Assembly: GCA_007376145.1 (NCBI GenBank)
Contig: VMFP01000001.1
Span: 122,835 to 186,834 of the forward strand
Source: Parcubacteria group bacterium Gr01-1014_38
Lineage (GTDB): Bacteria > Patescibacteriota > Andersenbacteria > UBA10190 > CAIZMI01
Reading direction: 5' to 3'
DNA length: 64,000 nucleotides
The position numbers and the translations under genes were made by a program. Position 1 is the first letter of the stretch; each line of letters opens with the position of its first letter. Under the pieces are notes generated by a model. It did no database searches, had not been told where the DNA came from, and was given only the letters and a program-made list of their open reading frames with translations. This document shows, one piece after another, positions 17,493-53,579 of the stretch.

Positions 17493-18410
17493 TTACGGTG
17501 CGGCCTGCAGCTCCTCGTACACCTGCCTGGCGATGTTGTCGAGGTAGGTGGCGAGTGGCAGGGTGAGTGAAGAGATGAGTCCACAGGCGCACATGACGAA
17601 ACCTTCACCGCCGAACGAATGCTGAAAGACTGACTGCACCGGAGCACCGCACTCGCGAAGAGCGCGCTCGACCACGAGATTTTGATACTCCACGAAGGGC
17701 TGGTTCGAGAGTACCAAGTAGAACCCAGGTCGCGGCTTGTGCTTGGTAAACCACTCCTTGGCGGTGTCACCAGTGTTCGGTGGTCGCGTTCCGCCGTCAG
17801 TCTTCGGTTGGAGCGGTGTGTTCACCAGTTCGTACTTCCACTCTGGGGGAAGCTGCGACTGCTGCCAGGTGAACTCCATCATCTCGGCCTCGGTCGTCGG
17901 CATCCGCTCTGGCGCAGTCCACCCCTCCTTGAAGGGAAGTTCGGCCGGAGTACAGAGCACCTCACGACTCTCTTTCACGGGATCGAGCGGGCGAGCGCCA
18001 CCGAAGAGGTAGGCTTTCCAGTCGCGCTGGAAATCAACGCGCGGTGCGAACGTGGTGAAGTCCTGCAGGCGGCTGACGACACGAGGTCGCAGTGCGCCGA
18101 GGAGGACCATGCCTTCGTAGATGACGGGTCGCGGCTCAGACGGCGGGTACTCCGGTGGGAACTCCAGGAAAGGTGGAACTTCATCGATGCAGTCCAGCTC
18201 ACGCAACAGAGCGAGATCGTCATCCTTCGGCGGCTCCCCCTTGATCTGGAATCGAAGGTAGCCCTCCTTGAACCACTTTTGCTGGAGACGGTCGTTGAGG
18301 TCCTTGGGCGACACGTCGTCGGGCACGTCAATGCCGTACTTGCGGCAGAGGACGAGCAGCTTCGGAACCGGTCGGCTATTCTGAAGTGGGCCATTCTGAA
18401 TCAAGCGCAC
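17493..18410 (-). CDS. hypothetical protein (305 aa)
   Basis: Long ORF with balanced composition and no recognised motifs. Abuts the IS element. Confidence 0.45.
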   Translation of the reverse strand: MRLIQNGPLQNSRPVPKLLVLCRKYGIDVPDDVSPKDLNDRLQQKWFKEGYLRFQIKGEPPKDDDLALLRELDCIDEVPPFLEFPPEYPPSEPRPVIYEGMVLLGALRPRVVSRLQDFTTFAPRVDFQRDWKAYLFGGARPLDPVKESREVLCTPAELPFKEGWTAPERMPTTEAEMMEFTWQQSQLPPEWKYELVNTPLQPKTDGGTRPPNTGDTAKEWFTKHKPRPGFYLVLSNQPFVEYQNLVVERALRECGAPVQSVFQHSFGGEGFVMCACGLISSLTLPLATYLDNIARQVYEELQAAP

Positions 18411-18502
18411 GGTATGCCCTCCGCATACGAGGAAATAGGTTGTGAGAGTTCAGATCCCAGAACGTCTGGGGACCAAAACCATAGCATGTCTCATCCCCCA
18501 TG

Positions 18503-19558
18503 TCAAGGAAATGTATTGTGCCACCACATTTTGCACTGCTCCGGGTACTTTTCCCCAAGGAACTGAACCGGTGATTTGAGCCCGAGGGCGTGGTGCGGCC
18601 GCTCGGTGTTGTGCCAGAGGAGATGCTCGACGAGCCGGACGTTGAACCGTCGAACGTCAAGGAGGAGTCCCGCGTGATAGTTCACGAACTCCTCCTGAAG
18701 GGTGCGGTTGAACCGCTCGTCGTGCGGGTTCATGCGCGGGCACTGCGGGTACGTCTTCCAGTGGGTGAGGTGCTGGTTCCGGACCTCGGCGGCAAAGCGC
18801 TTCTTGAACTCACTCCCGTTATCGGAGAGGACGTAGACCCAGGGAACCGGGAAGACCCGACGGACAAGGCGGAAGAACTCCGCCGCAGCCTGGGAGGCAT
18901 GACTCCGTGTCGCCCACGCGAAGGAGAACCGGGAGTGCGTATCGGTGAACGTGAGGAGGTACCGCCGCGTCCCGTGGAGGAACCGTTCAATGGTATCAAG
19001 GGTCACGAGATGGCCGGGATAGTCCGCGTGGAAGCCCTTCGGCTTCCGGAGGACATGTTCTCGCTTCCTCGGAACGATCCGCCCGTCGTGCCGGACCTTC
19101 TCCGGGAACAGGCGGAGGCCGCCGAGGTCGTGAATGAGACGAGCGACCGTGCGCGCAGAGGGAACGGAGAGCCTCCGTGCGATGCAGAACGGTCGGAGGA
19201 GCACGGCACACTTCGCGGGGCCGAGGTTCGGGTGTTCCTCACGGAGACGCCGGATCTCCGCGAGGACCTCCGGGGGCCACTCCGCGGTTCTCCGCCGGAG
19301 CGTGTGCGGCTTCGTACTCTTCGGGTTCAGGGCTTCCGGCATCCCACCACCCTCACGGAGCTGCTGCTTCCAGAGGAAAAGGGTTCTCCGAGACACACGG
19401 AAGGCCTCCTGGGTGGCCGCGAGGCCGTGCCGCTCCCAGAAGGCGAGGATGCGGGCGCGGTCTGTCGCTGAGCGGGTGATCATATGGGACCAGCGGAGCG
19501 CATAGTCCGACAGGCGCACAAACCCCCGGACACCGTACGAGAGACGGAGCACCCGCAT
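18503..19558 (-). CDS. DDE transposase (rve integrase core), IS481-like single ORF
   Basis: 351 aa with an N-terminal HTH region and a DDE triad context (LVTLDT ... SDNGSEF ... ERFNRTLQEE). The C-terminal codons ...WWHNTFP* run 7-9 nt past the IS terminus into flanking DNA to reach the TGA. Confidence 0.8.
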   Translation of the reverse strand: MRVLRLSYGVRGFVRLSDYALRWSHMITRSATDRARILAFWERHGLAATQEAFRVSRRTLFLWKQQLREGGGMPEALNPKSTKPHTLRRRTAEWPPEVLAEIRRLREEHPNLGPAKCAVLLRPFCIARRLSVPSARTVARLIHDLGGLRLFPEKVRHDGRIVPRKREHVLRKPKGFHADYPGHLVTLDTIERFLHGTRRYLLTFTDTHSRFSFAWATRSHASQAAAEFFRLVRRVFPVPWVYVLSDNGSEFKKRFAAEVRNQHLTHWKTYPQCPRMNPHDERFNRTLQEEFVNYHAGLLLDVRRFNVRLVEHLLWHNTERPHHALGLKSPVQFLGEKYPEQCKMWWHNTFP

Positions 19559-19613
19559 CAGCGCTTCCGTGAACCACGCTCCAGGGAGTGCAAAATGTTT
19601 CTGGCACTATGCA
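18512..19613 (-). mobile_element. IS481-family-like insertion sequence (~1.1 kb) with imperfect ~30-bp terminal inverted repeats and AGGAAA target-site duplication
   Basis: Left end TGTATTGTGCCACCACATTTTGCACTGCTCC. Right end (revcomp) TGCATAGTGCCAGAAACATTTTGCACTCC. Flanking direct repeat AGGAAA at 18506-18511 and 19613/4-19618. A single transposase ORF lies inside. Confidence 0.7.
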
Positions 19614-19668
19614 GGAAAAACCGCCTAACGCGAGCGCGCTAGGCGGTGCTTTGGAGAACGAGGAGCGG

Positions 19669-20466
19669 TTACTGCTGTTCCAACCACGCGATGCTGAAGT
19701 TGCGTCCGTCTACGTCTTGCTTTCCAGATTTGAAACGCGTGTACGACCAGTACGGCGGCTCTCCATTCTCCATCGCGCAGCAGGTGCACGTCGTGTCCCA
19801 GCTGATATTCTCTTCCGGGACGCCGACCTGCAGGAGGAGTCCACGCGCCAACGCGTAGAGGTCCACGGAGACGTGACCAGGCCCTGCGGGACTTTGCGTC
19901 GTTCTCCCGAGACACTGGGCAAGAAGTTCGGGACGGCGACTGCGTTTCGGCTCCAGAATCTCTGGCTTGTCGTCGTACTCTGGCAGCCAACAGCACGGAC
20001 CGACGCCGCCCTGAATCCACGCGTGCGTCTGTTTTGGATCGAAATACTCGATCGCCGACTCGATGACGTTCTTTCCATCTTGGTCAGCGCGAATCAGACA
20101 GCGATACCCGGCGTGGAGCACGGCCAATTGATCATTCTGCTGCAGGAAGACGAGCGGGCAGTCGCCGTTGAAAATGGCGATACCCGTGAGTGGGCCGGTC
20201 ACGATGCCGCCGTCCGCCGGGCTGCGCGTGCGGACAAACCCCGTCGGCCACGAGTCTCCTGTGGTCCAACTATCGTCGTCTTCGTGGAGGTGGGCAACGC
20301 GGTTGCTGAATTGCACCCATGGTCCAAAGATCCATGGCATGTGCGGAGGGAGATGCTTCTCCTTTGCCCGCATCAGCGTCTTGAGGAATTCTTCCCGGGG
20401 CTGGCTTGTCGGATGAAAGTTTCCGTCTTTGACACCAATCATTATTCGTCGCATGATCAGCGCCAT
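19669..20466 (-). CDS. pgeF: PgeF/YfiH-family (DUF152) purine-nucleoside phosphorylase / polyphenol-oxidase-like protein
   Basis: Conserved blocks FNGDCPLVFL, LHAGYRCL, GPCCW, DTTCTCC...YWSYTRF match the PgeF Cys/His signature. Confidence 0.65.
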   Translation of the reverse strand: MALIMRRIMIGVKDGNFHPTSQPREEFLKTLMRAKEKHLPPHMPWIFGPWVQFSNRVAHLHEDDDSWTTGDSWPTGFVRTRSPADGGIVTGPLTGIAIFNGDCPLVFLQQNDQLAVLHAGYRCLIRADQDGKNVIESAIEYFDPKQTHAWIQGGVGPCCWLPEYDDKPEILEPKRSRRPELLAQCLGRTTQSPAGPGHVSVDLYALARGLLLQVGVPEENISWDTTCTCCAMENGEPPYWSYTRFKSGKQDVDGRNFSIAWLEQQ

Positions 20467-20542
20467 CAGTTGTTCTCCTTTCGTTTGAAAAGAACCGGGC
20501 GATGCATGCCAAAGGCGAGTCTATACGATCCCCGGCGCTTTG

Positions 20543-20566
20543 TCCAGAATCTGTATTGTGCCACCA
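20543..20566. repeat. solo copy of the IS left terminus (TGTATTGTGCCACCACATTT, 20/20 identical), same orientation as the intact IS end
   Basis: Exact 20-nt match to 18512-18531. Identity begins precisely at the IS boundary and is lost after ~22 nt. Confidence 0.6.
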
Positions 20567-20648
20567 CATTTGGGACTCCGCGCGGGAGTGCTCCACATCA
20601 CGCGCTTCTTCACGCAGTGGTGAGTGCAGGGTAGGCTGAAGAAAGTCC

Positions 20649-22157
20649 ATGGTCTTGCACCTCTCGAATACGTTGACGAAAACGAAAGCAGAGATCACGC
20701 CAAGCAATCCCGACGGGATTCTGCGTCTGTACCACTGCGGGCCGACGGTGTACGGCACGCCGCACTTGGGAAACATCCGGCGATTCTTGGTCGCGGATCT
20801 CCTCGTACGGACCGCGCGGTTTCTCGGATACCGCGTGCGGAGCGTGATGAACATTACGGATGTCGGGCATCTCTTGGACGCTGACCACAATGCTGCGGGC
20901 ACTGACCGCATGCTCGTTGCCGCCCAGCGAGAGGGGAAAACGCCGCAGCAGATTGCGGCAAAGTACACAGCGGAGTTTTTCGAAGCACTCGCCGCAATAC
21001 GCGCGGAACCCGCGGACTACTACCCCCGCGCAACGATGCACATTCCGCAGATGCAGGCGATCATCCAACGCTTGATCGAGAAAGGATTGGCGTATGAGAC
21101 AAGCTCTGGCGTGTACTTCGATGTCACGAAGTGGCCGAGCTACGGGAAGCTCTCCGGGAATACGCTCGACGCTATCCGTGCCGGTGCGCGGGTGGATGTC
21201 CGCGAGGAGAAACATCATCCCGCGGACTTCGCACTCTGGGTCAAAGCGCCCAAAGAGCATCTCATGCAGTGGGACTCTCCGTGGGGCCGTGGCTATCCCG
21301 GTTGGCACATTGAATGTTCTGCGATGAGCATGCAGCTCCTCGGAGAGACCATTGATGTGCACACCGGCGGTAAAGACAATGTCTTTCCGCACCACGAGAA
21401 TGAAATCGCCCAAAGCGAAGGAGCGACGGGAATCCCCTTCGTCCACACCTGGCTCCATAACGAATTCCTCGAGCTGCAGGACCCTTCGACGGGCTCTGGG
21501 CAAGAGGAGAAGATGTCTAAGAGTGAGGGAGACATTCTGACCATCAACGATGTAAAAGCTCGCGGCTATGATCCGCTCGCTTTTCGGCTGCTCTGTCTCC
21601 AAACGCATTACCGCTCGAAACTCCACTTCTCGTGGGAGAGCATGGATGCGGCGGCATCTGCGCTGAAGAGTCTCCGTGATTTTGTCCGGAGGCTGGGAGA
21701 AGTGCGGGATGCGGCAACGGACAACAGGCAGCCGGTAGCAGGGAACGGACTTGCGGCGTTGGAGCAGCGATTTACCGACGCGCTGGCTGACGATCTGGGC
21801 TCCCCGCAAGCACTTGCGGCGGTGTTTGACTTTCTTCGTGAAGTGAATCCAAAACTCCAGTCAGGCGAGTTGGGCGCGGATGACGCAGAGGCGATTCGCG
21901 TGACGTTCCGGAAGCTCGATACCGTGCTCGCGCTCCTGGATGTGGACGTGCCACTTCCCTCCCCCGACGTTCCCGCCGAGGTTCAAAAACTTGTGGCCGA
22001 TCGCGAAGACGCCCGCCGCCGCCGGGATTTCGCTGCCGCCGATCGTCTCCGGAGCGACATCCGCGCTCATGGCTATACTGTCGATGACACGCCTCAAGGT
22101 CCGCGCGTTACGCAAAGTTCTACTGCTGGCGGAAATCGTACAGCGCGGACTTCTTGA
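20649..22157 (+). CDS. cysS: cysteine--tRNA ligase
   Basis: 502 aa with a HIGH-type motif (CGPTVYGTPHLGN), KMSKS, and a C-terminal anticodon-binding helical domain. Confidence 0.95.
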   Translation: MVLHLSNTLTKTKAEITPSNPDGILRLYHCGPTVYGTPHLGNIRRFLVADLLVRTARFLGYRVRSVMNITDVGHLLDADHNAAGTDRMLVAAQREGKTPQQIAAKYTAEFFEALAAIRAEPADYYPRATMHIPQMQAIIQRLIEKGLAYETSSGVYFDVTKWPSYGKLSGNTLDAIRAGARVDVREEKHHPADFALWVKAPKEHLMQWDSPWGRGYPGWHIECSAMSMQLLGETIDVHTGGKDNVFPHHENEIAQSEGATGIPFVHTWLHNEFLELQDPSTGSGQEEKMSKSEGDILTINDVKARGYDPLAFRLLCLQTHYRSKLHFSWESMDAAASALKSLRDFVRRLGEVRDAATDNRQPVAGNGLAALEQRFTDALADDLGSPQALAAVFDFLREVNPKLQSGELGADDAEAIRVTFRKLDTVLALLDVDVPLPSPDVPAEVQKLVADREDARRRRDFAAADRLRSDIRAHGYTVDDTPQGPRVTQSSTAGGNRTARTS

Positions 22158-50045: not shown

Positions 50046-51298
50046 GGTTCACCGCGTTCCCGCACACCGTCGCGGGCACAGCGGTCGTAGTATTGGAGAA
50101 GCTGGTTGGCGATGGATTGCGGAGCAAACCGCTCCTTGACGTACGCGCGCGCAGCGTCGCCCATCGCCGTGGCGTCGTCCCGATTCCGGAGAAGACGAAT
50201 CAGTGCTCCCGCGAGTGCTGACGGATCGTTGGGCGGTACGAGTGCTGCCGTCTGCGACGTCGTCGTTTCTAAAACGCCGCCGAGATCCGACGCGACGAGA
50301 GGCCGAGCACGGGCTCCGGCCTCCAATGCTGCGCGCCCGAACGGTTCTTCCCAGAGGTGAGCGGACACGACGATGGCCGAACGGTCCATGAGGTCGGAAA
50401 CCTCGGCTGGTGGGACGGCGCCGTGGAACGTGACGGCATCACGGAGGCCTAAGCGATCAGCGAGCGCGCGGTACCGCGGGAGTTCTCCACTGCCGGCGAG
50501 GTGGAGGCGGAGATCAGGAAATGTCTTTTGCGCCTCCGCGACGGCCTGGAGAAGAATGTCCGTTCCCTTCGTCGTTTCCAGGCGGCCCGCCGCACAGAGG
50601 ACATTTTCCTCCGGACGGGGGACGAGCGGCGTCGTCAGCCAACGTGGATCCACGGGGTTTTGGAGGATCATGGTCTGCACCGTCGGGGGAGGACGGAGGC
50701 GCGCCTCCACGCGCCTCCGGAGGCACTGACTCGTGTAGAGGTGGTGAGGAATGCGGCGGAAGGCGCGGGTACGAAAGCCGAGATTTCCTTTGTACTGCGC
50801 CACGCGGAATGGCTTCCGCGGGAGGGAGGCTTCCACGACGCGGTGGCACCGAAAGAGGACGTTCGTCCAGAAGCAGCCGTCGCAGGAGGAGCCGTCCCAC
50901 CACATGTTGTTCGTGGTCCCGCAGATCGGTGCGTAGTCGCGGATCGTGACGATGCGGTGCGGATGGGGGAGGAACGAGAGCGACAAGGCGCTGCGGAACT
51001 CTTGCGCATGGATGACGTCGGGCTGCAGCGCGTGTCTTGGAAGCAGCGCGGCGACGGTCTGTGCCGCTGCGCGACTCACCAAGACTTCCCGAAGCGGCTT
51101 TGACCACCAGGAGAGGAGCGGGCGCGTGCGGATCACCCGGACGCCGTGGAGAACGTCGTCCCCTTCCCCCGCCGCTCCGCAGACGACGGTGACGCTCGCG
51201 CCGGTCGCCGCCAGTGCTTCCGCGATCAGCTGCGTGGAGATTTCCCCGCCGCCGAGGACATCCGGCGGGTAGCGGGCGGAGAGGAAGAGCACCCGCAT
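50042..51298 (-). CDS. GT4 family glycosyltransferase
   Basis: Internal start MRVLFLSARYPPDVLGGGEIS. C-terminal EPFGRAALEAGARARPLV. The upstream 83-aa extension is Arg-rich and overlaps the next gene. Confidence 0.7.
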   Translation of the reverse strand: MRVLFLSARYPPDVLGGGEISTQLIAEALAATGASVTVVCGAAGEGDDVLHGVRVIRTRPLLSWWSKPLREVLVSRAAAQTVAALLPRHALQPDVIHAQEFRSALSLSFLPHPHRIVTIRDYAPICGTTNNMWWDGSSCDGCFWTNVLFRCHRVVEASLPRKPFRVAQYKGNLGFRTRAFRRIPHHLYTSQCLRRRVEARLRPPPTVQTMILQNPVDPRWLTTPLVPRPEENVLCAAGRLETTKGTDILLQAVAEAQKTFPDLRLHLAGSGELPRYRALADRLGLRDAVTFHGAVPPAEVSDLMDRSAIVVSAHLWEEPFGRAALEAGARARPLVASDLGGVLETTTSQTAALVPPNDPSALAGALIRLLRNRDDATAMGDAARAYVKERFAPQSIANQLLQYYDRCARDGVRERGEP

Positions 51299-52425
51299 CA
51301 GCCGCTCCGCGGGCTCAAGACCTTCGCGTAGACCGCCAGGGTCGCGGCGAGCATGTTCTCTCGCGTGAACTGCGCGGCACGGGCGAGTCCGCGCCGCCGG
51401 AGTTCTGCGCGGAGCGGCGCGTCGGTCAGGACCAAGGCGAGGCCTTCCGCGATTGCTTCGGTGTCTTCCGGGTTCACGAGGATCGCCGCATCGCCTACGA
51501 CTTCCGGAAGGCTGGAACGGTTCGACGTCACCACCGGCGTCCCGCACGCCATGGCTTCAAGCGGCGGGAACCCGAATCCTTCGTCGAGCGACGGGAATGC
51601 CAGCACCGTCGCTGCGTGGTACCAGAGGCGGAGCGCCGCATCGTTTGATTCCTCCACGAGACGGACGGTGCGGTCGAGGTGAAGTCGCGCAATCGTCTCA
51701 CGGAGTTCACGGCGACCGGACGCCACGCCCGCATCGCCAATCTTCACGAAGCGAACGTTCGGAACCCGTTGCCGGACGAGCGCGAGTGCTTCCAAAAGGC
51801 GACGGAGGTTCTTCCGCCGGTGCTCACTTCCTACGTAGAGAACCAGGGGAGGGTGATCGCAGAGATCTGCATCCGCAAGGAACCGCTTCCCTTCCTCGGT
51901 CTGCCAGAGCGCTCCTTGGAAGCGCAGGGATTCCGAACCCGAGGGGGGAATGACGGAGAGCCGCGCGTCCGGCACTTTATACTGTGCCCGAACATCCCGC
52001 GCGGTCGCCTCTGAATAGGTGAGAAGGTGCGCCGCATTTCTGATCCCGCGGTAGAGGATGCGCGCTACCGTTCCCCCAAAGAGCACCTGCGGGTCGCGGA
52101 GCTCGATGAGGTCCCAGACCGTGACGACGGATCGTTCAGGGGCTCTCCGTGCAAGAAACGCGAGCGTTTGGTTGGTGAAGTGCAGGATGCCCTCTGGCGG
52201 CGTGCGCAGGAGGCTTCCGGCAACGAGCCAGAACGCCGGCTTCCCGCCCGGCAGGCGCGGAACGATCCGAACGATCCTCCCGTTCTGCTCAATCGCCGAC
52301 ATCCGATGATCCAGCGTCAGGATCGTGACATCCTGTCCAGCGGCACGTAAGGCCTCCCGAAGCATTCCCACCGGCTTTCCGACGCCGGACGTTGCAGACG
52401 CGTTGGTGATGAGTGTGATCTTCAT
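51298..52425 (-). CDS. GT4 family glycosyltransferase
   Basis: Internal start MKITLITNASATSGVGKPV. EGFGFPPLEAMACGTPVV. 1-nt stop/start overlap with the downstream gene. Confidence 0.7.
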   Translation of the reverse strand: MKITLITNASATSGVGKPVGMLREALRAAGQDVTILTLDHRMSAIEQNGRIVRIVPRLPGGKPAFWLVAGSLLRTPPEGILHFTNQTLAFLARRAPERSVVTVWDLIELRDPQVLFGGTVARILYRGIRNAAHLLTYSEATARDVRAQYKVPDARLSVIPPSGSESLRFQGALWQTEEGKRFLADADLCDHPPLVLYVGSEHRRKNLRRLLEALALVRQRVPNVRFVKIGDAGVASGRRELRETIARLHLDRTVRLVEESNDAALRLWYHAATVLAFPSLDEGFGFPPLEAMACGTPVVTSNRSSLPEVVGDAAILVNPEDTEAIAEGLALVLTDAPLRAELRRRGLARAAQFTRENMLAATLAVYAKVLSPRSG

Positions 52426-53579
52426 GGTGCCGGCCGCTCGGGCTCTCCGGTGTGTTCGAGCACCCGTGCGTAGACCTCCAAGGTCTGGCGCGCGGTTCGC
52501 TCCCATGTGAATTGCTGAATCCAGGCTCGGCCCTGCTCGACGAGGCGCGTCCGTACGCCTTGGTCCGCGAGGAGGAGACGAAGCGCGGACGTGATTTCTT
52601 CTTCGTCCTCCGGATCCACGAGCAGCGCCGCAGGGCCGACGACCTCCGGGAGGCTCCCGCGCGCACTCACGAGGACCGGCGTCCCGCACGCCATGGCTTC
52701 AAGCGGCGGGAACCCGAATCCTTCATCCTGGCTCAAGAACGCAAAGGCATCGGCACTGCCGTACAGCGTTGGAAGATCCGCGCTCTCCACCCGACCCAGA
52801 AAGCACACGCGATCCTTCAGTCGTGGGTCACGGGCGGCAGCGACGACGCGCTCGGTTTTCCAACCCCACCGACCTGCAATGACGAGGGTATGCGGGAACT
52901 CGCCGACCACGCGTGCAAAGGCTCGGAGCAACCGGTCGACGTTCTTCCGTGGCTCAATGGTTCCGACGGTGAGCACATACGGTGTCGCACCGAGACCGAG
53001 CCGCGCCAAAAGCGCCGCGCGAGCGTCTGGTGCCGCCGGGGCAAAGGTCGGTTCGATGCCGGGGGTGGTCACGGTAATGCGGTCTGCTGGCACACCGAGC
53101 GTATCCACGATGGCCCGTTTCGATGCTTCGGAAATCGTCACGATCGCCGTGGCGTGACGTGCGGCGGCAGGCAGTTCCAGGCGCCAGTAGGTCCGCTGGG
53201 CGACCGTCTGCGTTCTTGGATGCGTGAGGGAGATCACGTCGTAGATCGTCGTGACGACCGGTGGGAACCCGCGGCGGAATGGAGTGCCGCTTGGCTTCGT
53301 CAGGTGCACGAGGCGAGGGCGCAATCTACGAATCGCGCGCGGGAGCGCCACAAGGTTCCAGTAGGGGCGCAGCCACGGCGTGGCCGGCGGTACCGCCAGA
53401 CTCGGGAAATTTCTGACGGCGGTCTGGCCCCGCTGGTGGTCACAGATAACCGTGAGCGTAAGCGGTGGGTCCAGCTGCGTAAAGCCGTCCAGCAAGCCGC
53501 GGATGTACCGAACGACTCCCCCCGCTGGCCCGGACAGTGCGCGGGCCTCGAGAGCCACCAGCGGTGGCGATGCCGTCAT
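52422..53579 (-). CDS. GT4 family glycosyltransferase
   Basis: EGFGFPPLEAMACGTPVLVS. 4-nt overlaps on both sides. Confidence 0.7.
   Translation of the reverse strand: MTASPPLVALEARALSGPAGGVVRYIRGLLDGFTQLDPPLTLTVICDHQRGQTAVRNFPSLAVPPATPWLRPYWNLVALPRAIRRLRPRLVHLTKPSGTPFRRGFPPVVTTIYDVISLTHPRTQTVAQRTYWRLELPAAARHATAIVTISEASKRAIVDTLGVPADRITVTTPGIEPTFAPAAPDARAALLARLGLGATPYVLTVGTIEPRKNVDRLLRAFARVVGEFPHTLVIAGRWGWKTERVVAAARDPRLKDRVCFLGRVESADLPTLYGSADAFAFLSQDEGFGFPPLEAMACGTPVLVSARGSLPEVVGPAALLVDPEDEEEITSALRLLLADQGVRTRLVEQGRAWIQQFTWERTARQTLEVYARVLEHTGEPERPAP

Follow-up and report, generated by a model that had tools for sequence, protein, structure and literature searches.

RESULTS

An intact IS481-family element and a second copy of one of its ends flank pgeF

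The stretch of DNA analyzed here (the window) comprises 64,000 nucleotides (nt) of contig VMFP01000001.1 (positions 122,835 to 186,834; assembly GCA_007376145.1) from Parcubacteria group bacterium Gr01-1014_38, a metagenome-assembled genome (MAG) of the Candidate Phyla Radiation (CPR) with a GC content of ~60%. The contig comes from a metagenome assembly (k=139). Our subject is an intact insertion sequence (IS) of the IS481 family, the PgeF/YfiH-family gene pgeF beside it, and an orphan copy of one IS end that lies between pgeF and cysS (Table 1). GC content is ~0.57 to 0.60 around the locus versus 0.62 to 0.67 within the IS.

An earlier note on this DNA had placed an IS-like unit here, with ~30-bp imperfect terminal inverted repeats (IRs) and flanking AGGAAA repeats. 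Alignment recovered the unit at those boundaries and the imperfect similarity of its ends, over 27 nt with one 1-nt indel rather than ~30 bp (TGTATTGTGCCA-CCACATTTTGCACT versus TGCATAGTGCCAGAAACATTTTGCACT). The termini are TGT../TGC.. (TG..CA), and the plus strand reads ..CATGTCAAGGAAA/TGTATTGTGCCACCACATTTTGCACTGC.. at the 18512 boundary and ..AGTGCAAAATGTTTCTGGCACTATGCA/GGAAAAACCGCC.. at the 19613 boundary (slashes mark the junctions). A target-site duplication (TSD) is also present, but it measures 5 bp (GGAAA), since the additional right-hand A of AGGAAA, when judged against the ends of relatives, belongs to the IS as its conserved final base (..TATGCA). Relatives with matching ends (L013, L014/15, L016, and L030 to L035; other loci are designated by L numbers) carry TGCATA.GGCCAGA.ACAT.. 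at IR-N, the repeat upstream of the transposase start, and ..ATGTGGTGGC..AATACA at IR-C, the repeat at the end encoding the transposase C terminus. TSDs of relatives are likewise 5 bp (GAAGG, GTGAG, AATAA, CTGTG, TGTCC, and AGCAC, with TTCCT also listed), a size corroborated by an Escherichia coli empty site described below. In some otherwise intact relatives, the 5-bp flanks do not match: L013 (Ga0213870_1006928; GAACG versus ATGCA), L032, and L034, the last having an IR-C flank in common with L033 and a different IR-N flank. Recombination between copies, or deletions next to them, could account for these mismatches.

Table 1. Features of the pgeF locus, in window coordinates
Feature	Position	Strand	Basis or remarks
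Hypothetical 305-amino-acid (aa) gene	17493-18410	−	Lies downstream of the IS and is oriented like the transposase gene
Promoter-like TTGACA-17-TATGGT	18478-18506	−	Promoter scan 10/12, TG before −10; immediately outside the TSD, faces the 305-aa gene
Transposase open reading frame (ORF), 351 aa	18503-19558	−	ORF list; last two codons and TGA stop beyond the IS
TSD, left copy, GGAAA (5 bp)	18507-18511		Sequence
Intact IS481-family IS, ISKpn28-like clade	18512-19613	−	1,102 bp; IR alignment; relatives L013, L014, and L016 of the same architecture
IR-C	18512-18539	+	Encodes ..CKMWWHNT
IR-N	19587-19613	−	TGCATAGTGCCAGAAACATTTTGCACT on the minus strand
TSD, right copy, GGAAA (5 bp)	19614-19618		Sequence
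pgeF intrinsic terminator hairpin	19620-19647	−	Terminator scan; 12-bp stem, 8 GC pairs
pgeF, PgeF/YfiH family (Cu-oxidase_4)	19669-20466	−	Gene caller start, 20442
Promoter-like TTGACA-17-CATGAT	20429-20457	+	Promoter scan 10/12; within the pgeF start region, faces cysS
Promoter-like TGGACA-17-TAGACT	20518-20546	−	Promoter scan 9/12; faces pgeF, 5 nt from the orphan end
Spacer GAATC (5 nt)	20547-20551		Separates the orphan end from the −35 box; occupies the position of a TSD copy
Orphan IR-C end	20552-20581	+	20/20 identity to the IS tip, then ~6/10, 26/30 overall; same orientation as the IS
cysS (cysteinyl-tRNA synthetase)	20649-22157	+	Pfam tRNA-synt_1e, E = 8.8e-91, plus DALR_2 and CysS_C

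The transposase, encoded by a single uninterrupted ORF with no programmed frameshift, has Pfam rve (39.6 bits), rve_3, and N-terminal helix-turn-helix domains. Its best NCBIfam match was the IS481 model NF033577 (E = 7.5e-50; 170 bits), with IS3 second at 93 bits. The score lies below the curated cutoff of 224; close CPR relatives score 150 to 166, an E. coli relative 221.6, and ISKpn28 234.8, which passes. ISKpn28 is a documented active 1,100-bp IS481-family element (PMC6101004), and its transposase is 39% identical to that of the window end to end, including the C-terminal CNMWWPHT. All residues invariant in a 30-sequence alignment are kept, among them D188, D246, and E281, which probably form the DDE catalytic triad, an assignment based on the 58- and 35-residue intervals between them and on where the Pfam rve match falls. 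The length, the TG(T) termini, the 27-bp IRs, and the 5-bp TSD (found here and in 6 relatives) all lie within the ranges given for the family (~1 to 1.3 kb, IRs starting TG(T), and TSDs of 2 to 15 bp, mostly 6; PMC10045372). Because of the rank of the IS481 model and the full-length similarity to ISKpn28, we assign the element to IS481 despite the subcutoff score; these features, with the TG..CA ends, the single DDE ORF, and the TSD, uphold the IS481-like identity given in the earlier note. By its score, the element is a divergent branch of the family.

Relatives of the transposase number in the thousands. The closest (83 to 55% identity) are metagenome proteins, mostly on IS-sized contigs of 1.1 to 1.4 kb, and the nearest in cultured bacteria are an element on a Nitrosophilus plasmid (43%) and a group from E. 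coli and Klebsiella (40%) that includes ISKpn28. The clade containing ISKpn28 is abundant in CPR/groundwater metagenomes. The copy in the window is probably active.

Transposase translation ends at a stop codon in the target DNA

Read across the IS tip, the transposase frame is ..ATG TGG TGG CAC AAT ACA / TTT CCT TGA. Its stop is thus a TGA in the flanking DNA (plus-strand TCA, 18503-18505), inside the TTGACA of a −35 box; the crossing of the IS terminus reported previously is evident both in the sequence and in the ORF list. The C-terminal motif M[WY][WL]xxT is kept in 109 of 120 homologues, and 71 of these 109 terminate exactly 2 residues past the conserved ..T. Among these 71, the first tail residue is unconstrained (K, E, Q, M, or W in 14), whereas the second is never one of these five, meaning that the sixth flanking base is always compatible with T. 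The clade as a whole has no transposase stop codon of its own: a 2-residue tail ends in the TTG(AC) of the target.

Stops supplied by the insertion site have been described for other members of the family, namely, IS481, IS1002, ISLxc2, and ISLxx4, which share TGT termini and a single ORF with the window IS (PMC2516522). In those elements, the stop is a TAG inside a palindromic 6-bp TSD (NCTAGN), and orientation is free. Here, in contrast, the 5 bases of the TSD vary, and the TGA is found past them, within a TTGAC whose asymmetry fixes the orientation and which coincides with the −35 box. Since the transposase stop falls beyond the IS, PGAP marks apparently intact E. coli copies (L023, L024, L026, and L027) as pseudogenes ("incomplete; missing C-terminus"), a systematic artifact by which annotation pipelines mislabel the ISKpn28-like clade.

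Insertions of the clade adjoin −35-like hexamers

We surveyed the targets of the clade at 17 independent sites from CPR metagenomes, E. coli, and Nitrosophilus. At the IR-C tip, 5 variable bases (the TSD) are followed by a −35-like hexamer, with a single insertion orientation. TTG occupies positions +6 to +8 from the tip at 13 of the 17 sites (background, 0.013), and a −10-like TAnnnT lies 16 to 18 nt past the hexamer at 15 (background, 0.019). Full sigma-70 criteria were passed at the fixed position at 9 sites, compared to 3.4e-4 per random position. The hexamer after the 5-base spacer is TTGACA for the window IS and L032; TTGACG for L013, L014, L009, and L018; TTGACT for L019; TTGACC for L031; TTGAAA for L030; TTGTAA for L023; TTGCAA for L025; TTGCTC for L026; and TTTTCA for L033. 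The outer flank of L009 (Ga0213870_1018580:1-266) reads GGAAA-TTGACG-17-TACGTT and lies ahead of a RelE/ParE-like toxin-antitoxin pair.

An empty site and Rfam matches from E. coli bear on the nature of these hexamers. When the two flanks of an E. coli copy are joined through one TSD copy, the resulting 320-nt sequence occurs without interruption, and with 100% identity, in many genomes of the species. At two E. coli sites, the Rfam matches to the AgrB and RdlD small RNAs (sRNAs) begin 41 to 42 nt from the IS tip and 6 to 7 nt past the predicted −10, indicating that these hexamers are real promoters. These type I antitoxin/antisense sRNAs lie at L025:1396-1521 and L023:1397-1502 (chromosomes NZ_CP039404.1 and NZ_CP027219.1), and a third E. 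coli copy (L026) adjoins a hok/gef gene; IS copies at the AgrB and RdlD promoters may affect toxin-antitoxin regulation. We also considered TTGAC as part of a longer element and rejected this: it has no counterpart at the right end, the TSD separates it from the IR, close copies have unrelated spacers, and the E. coli empty site carries the hexamer. The hexamer is therefore target DNA and not IS.

In the window, the intact IS sits between the pgeF terminator and the promoter-like TTGACA-17-TATGGT of the 305-aa gene. The insertion point is the T-tail of the terminator (GGCGGT TTTTCC/TGCA; tail TTTTTCC), and the sequence before insertion would have been terminator-TTTTTCC-TTGACA. Since the IS entered this 11-bp gap, neither neighboring gene was damaged. 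In the literature searched, coverage of which is incomplete and excludes ISfinder, we found no account of a whole clade inserting 5 bp upstream of −35 boxes.

The orphan end is a genuine IS end in the register of an insertion

The 20-mer that forms the IR-C tip (TGTATTGTGCCACCACATTT) has exactly two copies in the 64 kb, at 18512 and at 20552-20571, both on the plus strand. The earlier note had reported this recurrence of the left terminus, in the same orientation and upstream of cysS; the exact second copy was confirmed, but its position is not 20543 as given, and the end coordinate used there (20566) cuts through it. The cysS start lies 77 nt downstream of the second 20-mer. Past ~30 nt, similarity between orphan and IS falls to chance level. 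The distance from the orphan to TGGACA-17-TAGACT, 5 nt, is the same register as in 15 intact copies, and such a promoter site has a background rate of 3.4e-4 at one fixed position.

Recurrence of the 20-mer through chance, through a common host motif, or through misassembly is extremely improbable. The contig does come from a metagenome assembly; however, a 20-nt repeat cannot mislead an assembly with k=139, and the flanking register fits the target rule of the clade. Matches numbered 0 in 100 shuffles, even at 3 mismatches. We searched a degenerate pattern (TGYATWGTGCCACCACATTT) against 185,579 species genomes (596 Gb) and JGI metagenomes, neither of which includes the source genome, and obtained 4 and 5 matches, respectively, about the chance level and most of them in unrelated genes. 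L003, L004, L005, L006, L007, L008, and L010 were rejected as further copies, being unrelated genes or chance matches. These chance-level counts rule out the common genomic motif that the earlier note had named as one way in which its reading could fail.

Two loci elsewhere resemble the orphan. At L002:212-231 (CAYQLH010000042.1), a 20-mer similar to IR-C (19/20), likewise orphaned, is separated by 5 nt from a perfect TTGACA-16-TATAAT upstream of nusA-infB. That contig is without a transposase and is labeled an uncultured Pseudomonadales MAG; with its low GC content and small IF-2, it may not be Pseudomonadales. L009 was rejected as a second orphan: an IS3-like OrfA at the contig start, encoded on the opposite strand, cuts its IS end 42 to 66 nt from the tip. 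The C-terminal end of L009 is nearly identical to the window IS.

Orphan and intact IS are not parts of one mobile unit

As the earlier note had stated, the PgeF-like gene is the only one in the segment separating the IS from the solo end; this segment consists of pgeF with its terminator and promoter. A single gene bracketed by two copies of the same end had suggested a composite or one-ended structure that might mobilize pgeF. The arrangement of the ends contradicts this. The two IR-C copies are direct rather than inverted, and the pgeF segment (19614-20551) faces the outer side of both IR-N (19613/19614) and the orphan (20551/20552). Because pgeF lies outside both elements, transposase cleavage at these tips would exclude it. 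No inverted partner end was found in the window at ≤6 errors per 27 to 28 nt, to the right of the orphan or elsewhere; this search returned only IR-C, IR-N, and the orphan. The contexts of PgeF orthologues in the nearest relatives are unrelated and free of IS elements, and we know of no one-ended transposition among DDE elements of the IS3/IS481 type. A composite transposon encloses its cargo between inverted ends, and no such enclosure exists at this locus. The orphan and the intact IS form no transposable unit, and we consider a composite or one-ended origin very improbable.

The orphan is probably the relic of an earlier insertion

Of the explanations offered in the earlier note, the scar of a second IS copy is the best. 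Because the orphan has the orientation and register of a genuine clade insertion, we read it as a relic in place and not as a transferred fragment. We think it likely that the orphan is the terminal ~30 bp of IR-C from the same or a very close element, left by an earlier insertion. In this scenario, an earlier copy would have inserted at the pgeF promoter, and its body and IR-N would later have been deleted. A deletion could not have crossed the promoter 5 nt away, so that stepwise erosion would leave a short stump on the promoter side. The identity of the two tips would be accounted for if the earlier copy had hopped locally to the next promoter, at a distance of 2 kb. This order of events and the mechanism of deletion are ones that we infer.

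A search for a longer remnant beside the orphan gave no significant similarity to the whole IS on either flank or in either orientation, and no second GAATC was found beside an IR-N-like end to its right. The minus-strand peptide "..LHSPL..SQMWWHNT" was dropped as a candidate C terminus of the family, having only a 4-residue motif in the wrong spacing.

Several points weigh against this account. Among the relatives compared, we found no empty site and no relic-free relative of the window genome. The closest PgeF orthologues (68% and 61% identical) are nonsyntenic; with no empty site, the history of the locus is therefore inferred and not observed. Random deletion leaving only ~30 bp would be a coincidence, unless selection or stepwise erosion were involved. 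The orphan at L002 is also short (~20 to 26 nt) and shares with the window orphan two bases that differ from the resident IS, a likeness that hints at a specific short unit or at a different parent element. A weak collinear match of 20572-20630 to the 5' leader of the IS (P ~0.01) could mean an internally deleted derivative. As to the target rule, the −10 enrichment could reflect survivorship, with insertions inside genes having been purged, rather than promoter recognition, and ISKpn28 has been found inside the mgrB ORF (PMC6101004).

The leader match bears on a second interpretation, in which the orphan is a nonautonomous, internally deleted derivative of the IS, similar to a miniature inverted-repeat transposable element (MITE). 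Such a derivative would span ~20552-20640/20660, would have arisen by its own transposition or by deletion in place, and would since have lost its outer IR-N. The reverse complement of 20572-20630 is weakly collinear with IS positions 21 to 86 (inner IR-N, leader, ATG, and first codons), with an alignment score of 14 compared to a shuffle mean of 8.5 to 9.0; in this restricted search, 8 to 13 of 1,000 dinucleotide shuffles reached that score. The register beside the −35 box is also as expected for a real insertion. However, the match was not significant against the whole IS (233 of 1,000 shuffles), MAFFT gave no stable alignment with relatives, and the outer 20 nt of IR-N are absent. GC-rich start regions match easily: a "GCTGATGCGGGTGCTC"-type string is also seen, by chance, where two glycosyltransferase genes meet (51287-51302). 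At the orphan, only one IR is recognizable and there is no TSD partner, and the window holds no further copy. We regard a MITE-like origin as unlikely.

The match at the glycosyltransferase junction, 16 nt exact between 19547-19562 of the IS and 51287-51302, was rejected as chance; it falls at the stop/start overlap of two glycosyltransferase genes. The wider likeness there (51279-51309 versus 19539-19569; 31 nt, ..TGATGCGGGTGCTC = MRVL) was judged coincidental.

A further idea is that the orphan, which would occupy −41 to −70 relative to the pgeF promoter and part of the leader of cysS, has been co-opted by the host or by the IS, serving as an upstream element of that promoter or binding transposase as an operator. 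In both of the unrelated genomes with an orphan (here and L002), only the terminal 20 to 30 nt are kept, 5 nt upstream of a good promoter, and in the window the outermost 20 nt carry no change, compared with 4 changes in the 10 nt that follow. Yet there are two cases only, and both came from exact 20-mer matching, which forces a conserved-looking tip; no Rfam or other motif is present, and orphan ends of the related E. coli IS are plain debris beside other IS elements. Co-option is thus improbable. We keep these last two readings at low probability because the short stump, the likeness to L002, and the weak leader match are left unexplained by a relic in place, which we continue to prefer.

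Neighboring genes and other repeats

The product of the 305-aa gene had no Pfam or NCBIfam match. That of pgeF matched Pfam PF02578 (Cu-oxidase_4; E = 9.5e-15; 55.1 bits, cutoff 22.9) over profile positions 75 to 237 only and scored 43 bits against the NCBIfam PgeF model TIGR00726 (curated cutoff, 141). We class it from these scores as a divergent PgeF/YfiH-family member. Scanning 2.5 kb returned only 3 promoter-like sites (0.6 expected), 2 of which adjoin the two IR-C copies. If the third, a strong one at 20429-20457, is used, the cysS leader would be ~185 nt long, with the orphan inside it; no Rfam family and no T-box or other leader RNA was found in this leader. Elsewhere in the window are two direct repeat pairs, one of 124 nt at 87% identity (39519-39642 and 42533-42656) and one of 53 nt at 98% identity (51533-51585 and 52675-52727), the latter in a region of adjacent glycosyltransferase genes.

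DISCUSSION

The closest described counterparts of the window IS are ISKpn28 and its E. coli relatives. Like the window IS, they are ~1.1 kb long, with a single DDE transposase ORF that lacks a frameshift and runs out of the element, TG..CA termini, ~27-bp IRs with the same 1-nt indel, a 5-bp TSD, and IR-C 5 bp from TTG-type hexamers. Their transposases are 39 to 40% identical to that of the window over the full protein, including the IR-encoded C-terminal ..C[NK]MWWxxT. The window IS differs from ISKpn28 in this low identity (39%), in its score of 170 bits versus the cutoff of 224, and in its CPR Parcubacteria host.

Insertion beside one functional DNA site has a precedent in the superfamily: members of the IS1202 subclass are described as abutting XerCD sites (bioRxiv 10.1101/2022.12.17.520857), and IS1202 has been placed within IS481 (PMC10045372). 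The target here differs, being the −35 region of a promoter and not a recombination site, and the TSD lengths differ as well.

Solitary IS ends also have parallels. A related E. coli element has orphan ends of 36 to 61 bp, and a truncated end occurs in the metagenome contig L009. The E. coli ends are explained by adjoining or inserted IS1, IS100, and IS3 and that of L009 by the IS3-like OrfA, whereas the window orphan has no second IS beside it. On an E. coli plasmid (CP148300.1; L018:1212-1289), an Rfam group II intron domain match lies ~150 nt upstream of an IS481-family copy. Located between IS1 and the IS, it is a further sign of stacked mobile elements.

The element is a new, divergent member of a known family, and the orphan, read as a relic, is equally ordinary. 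What merits following up is not the locus itself, which is ordinary, but the clade-wide insertion beside −35 boxes with a hexamer-supplied stop. A more far-reaching proposal, which we put forward only tentatively and think rather doubtful, is that the ISKpn28-like clade, from CPR to E. coli, is a promoter-targeting transposon. It would sense active sigma-70 promoters through the −35 box or bound RNA polymerase, insert in one orientation at about −41, use the TGA of the −35 box as its stop, and so gain a safe position with a terminator on one side and the next promoter on the other, with orphan IR-C ends retained in the region upstream of the promoter.

At this locus, pgeF is not carried by any mobile unit, and the features to annotate are one intact IS and a 30-bp relic. 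If the N5-TTG(AC) rule is a true target choice, the clade would represent bacterial safe-site insertion immediately upstream of core promoters. This would be especially useful to the element in the tightly packed genomes of CPR bacteria, and the elements would be natural markers of promoter positions in uncultured organisms.

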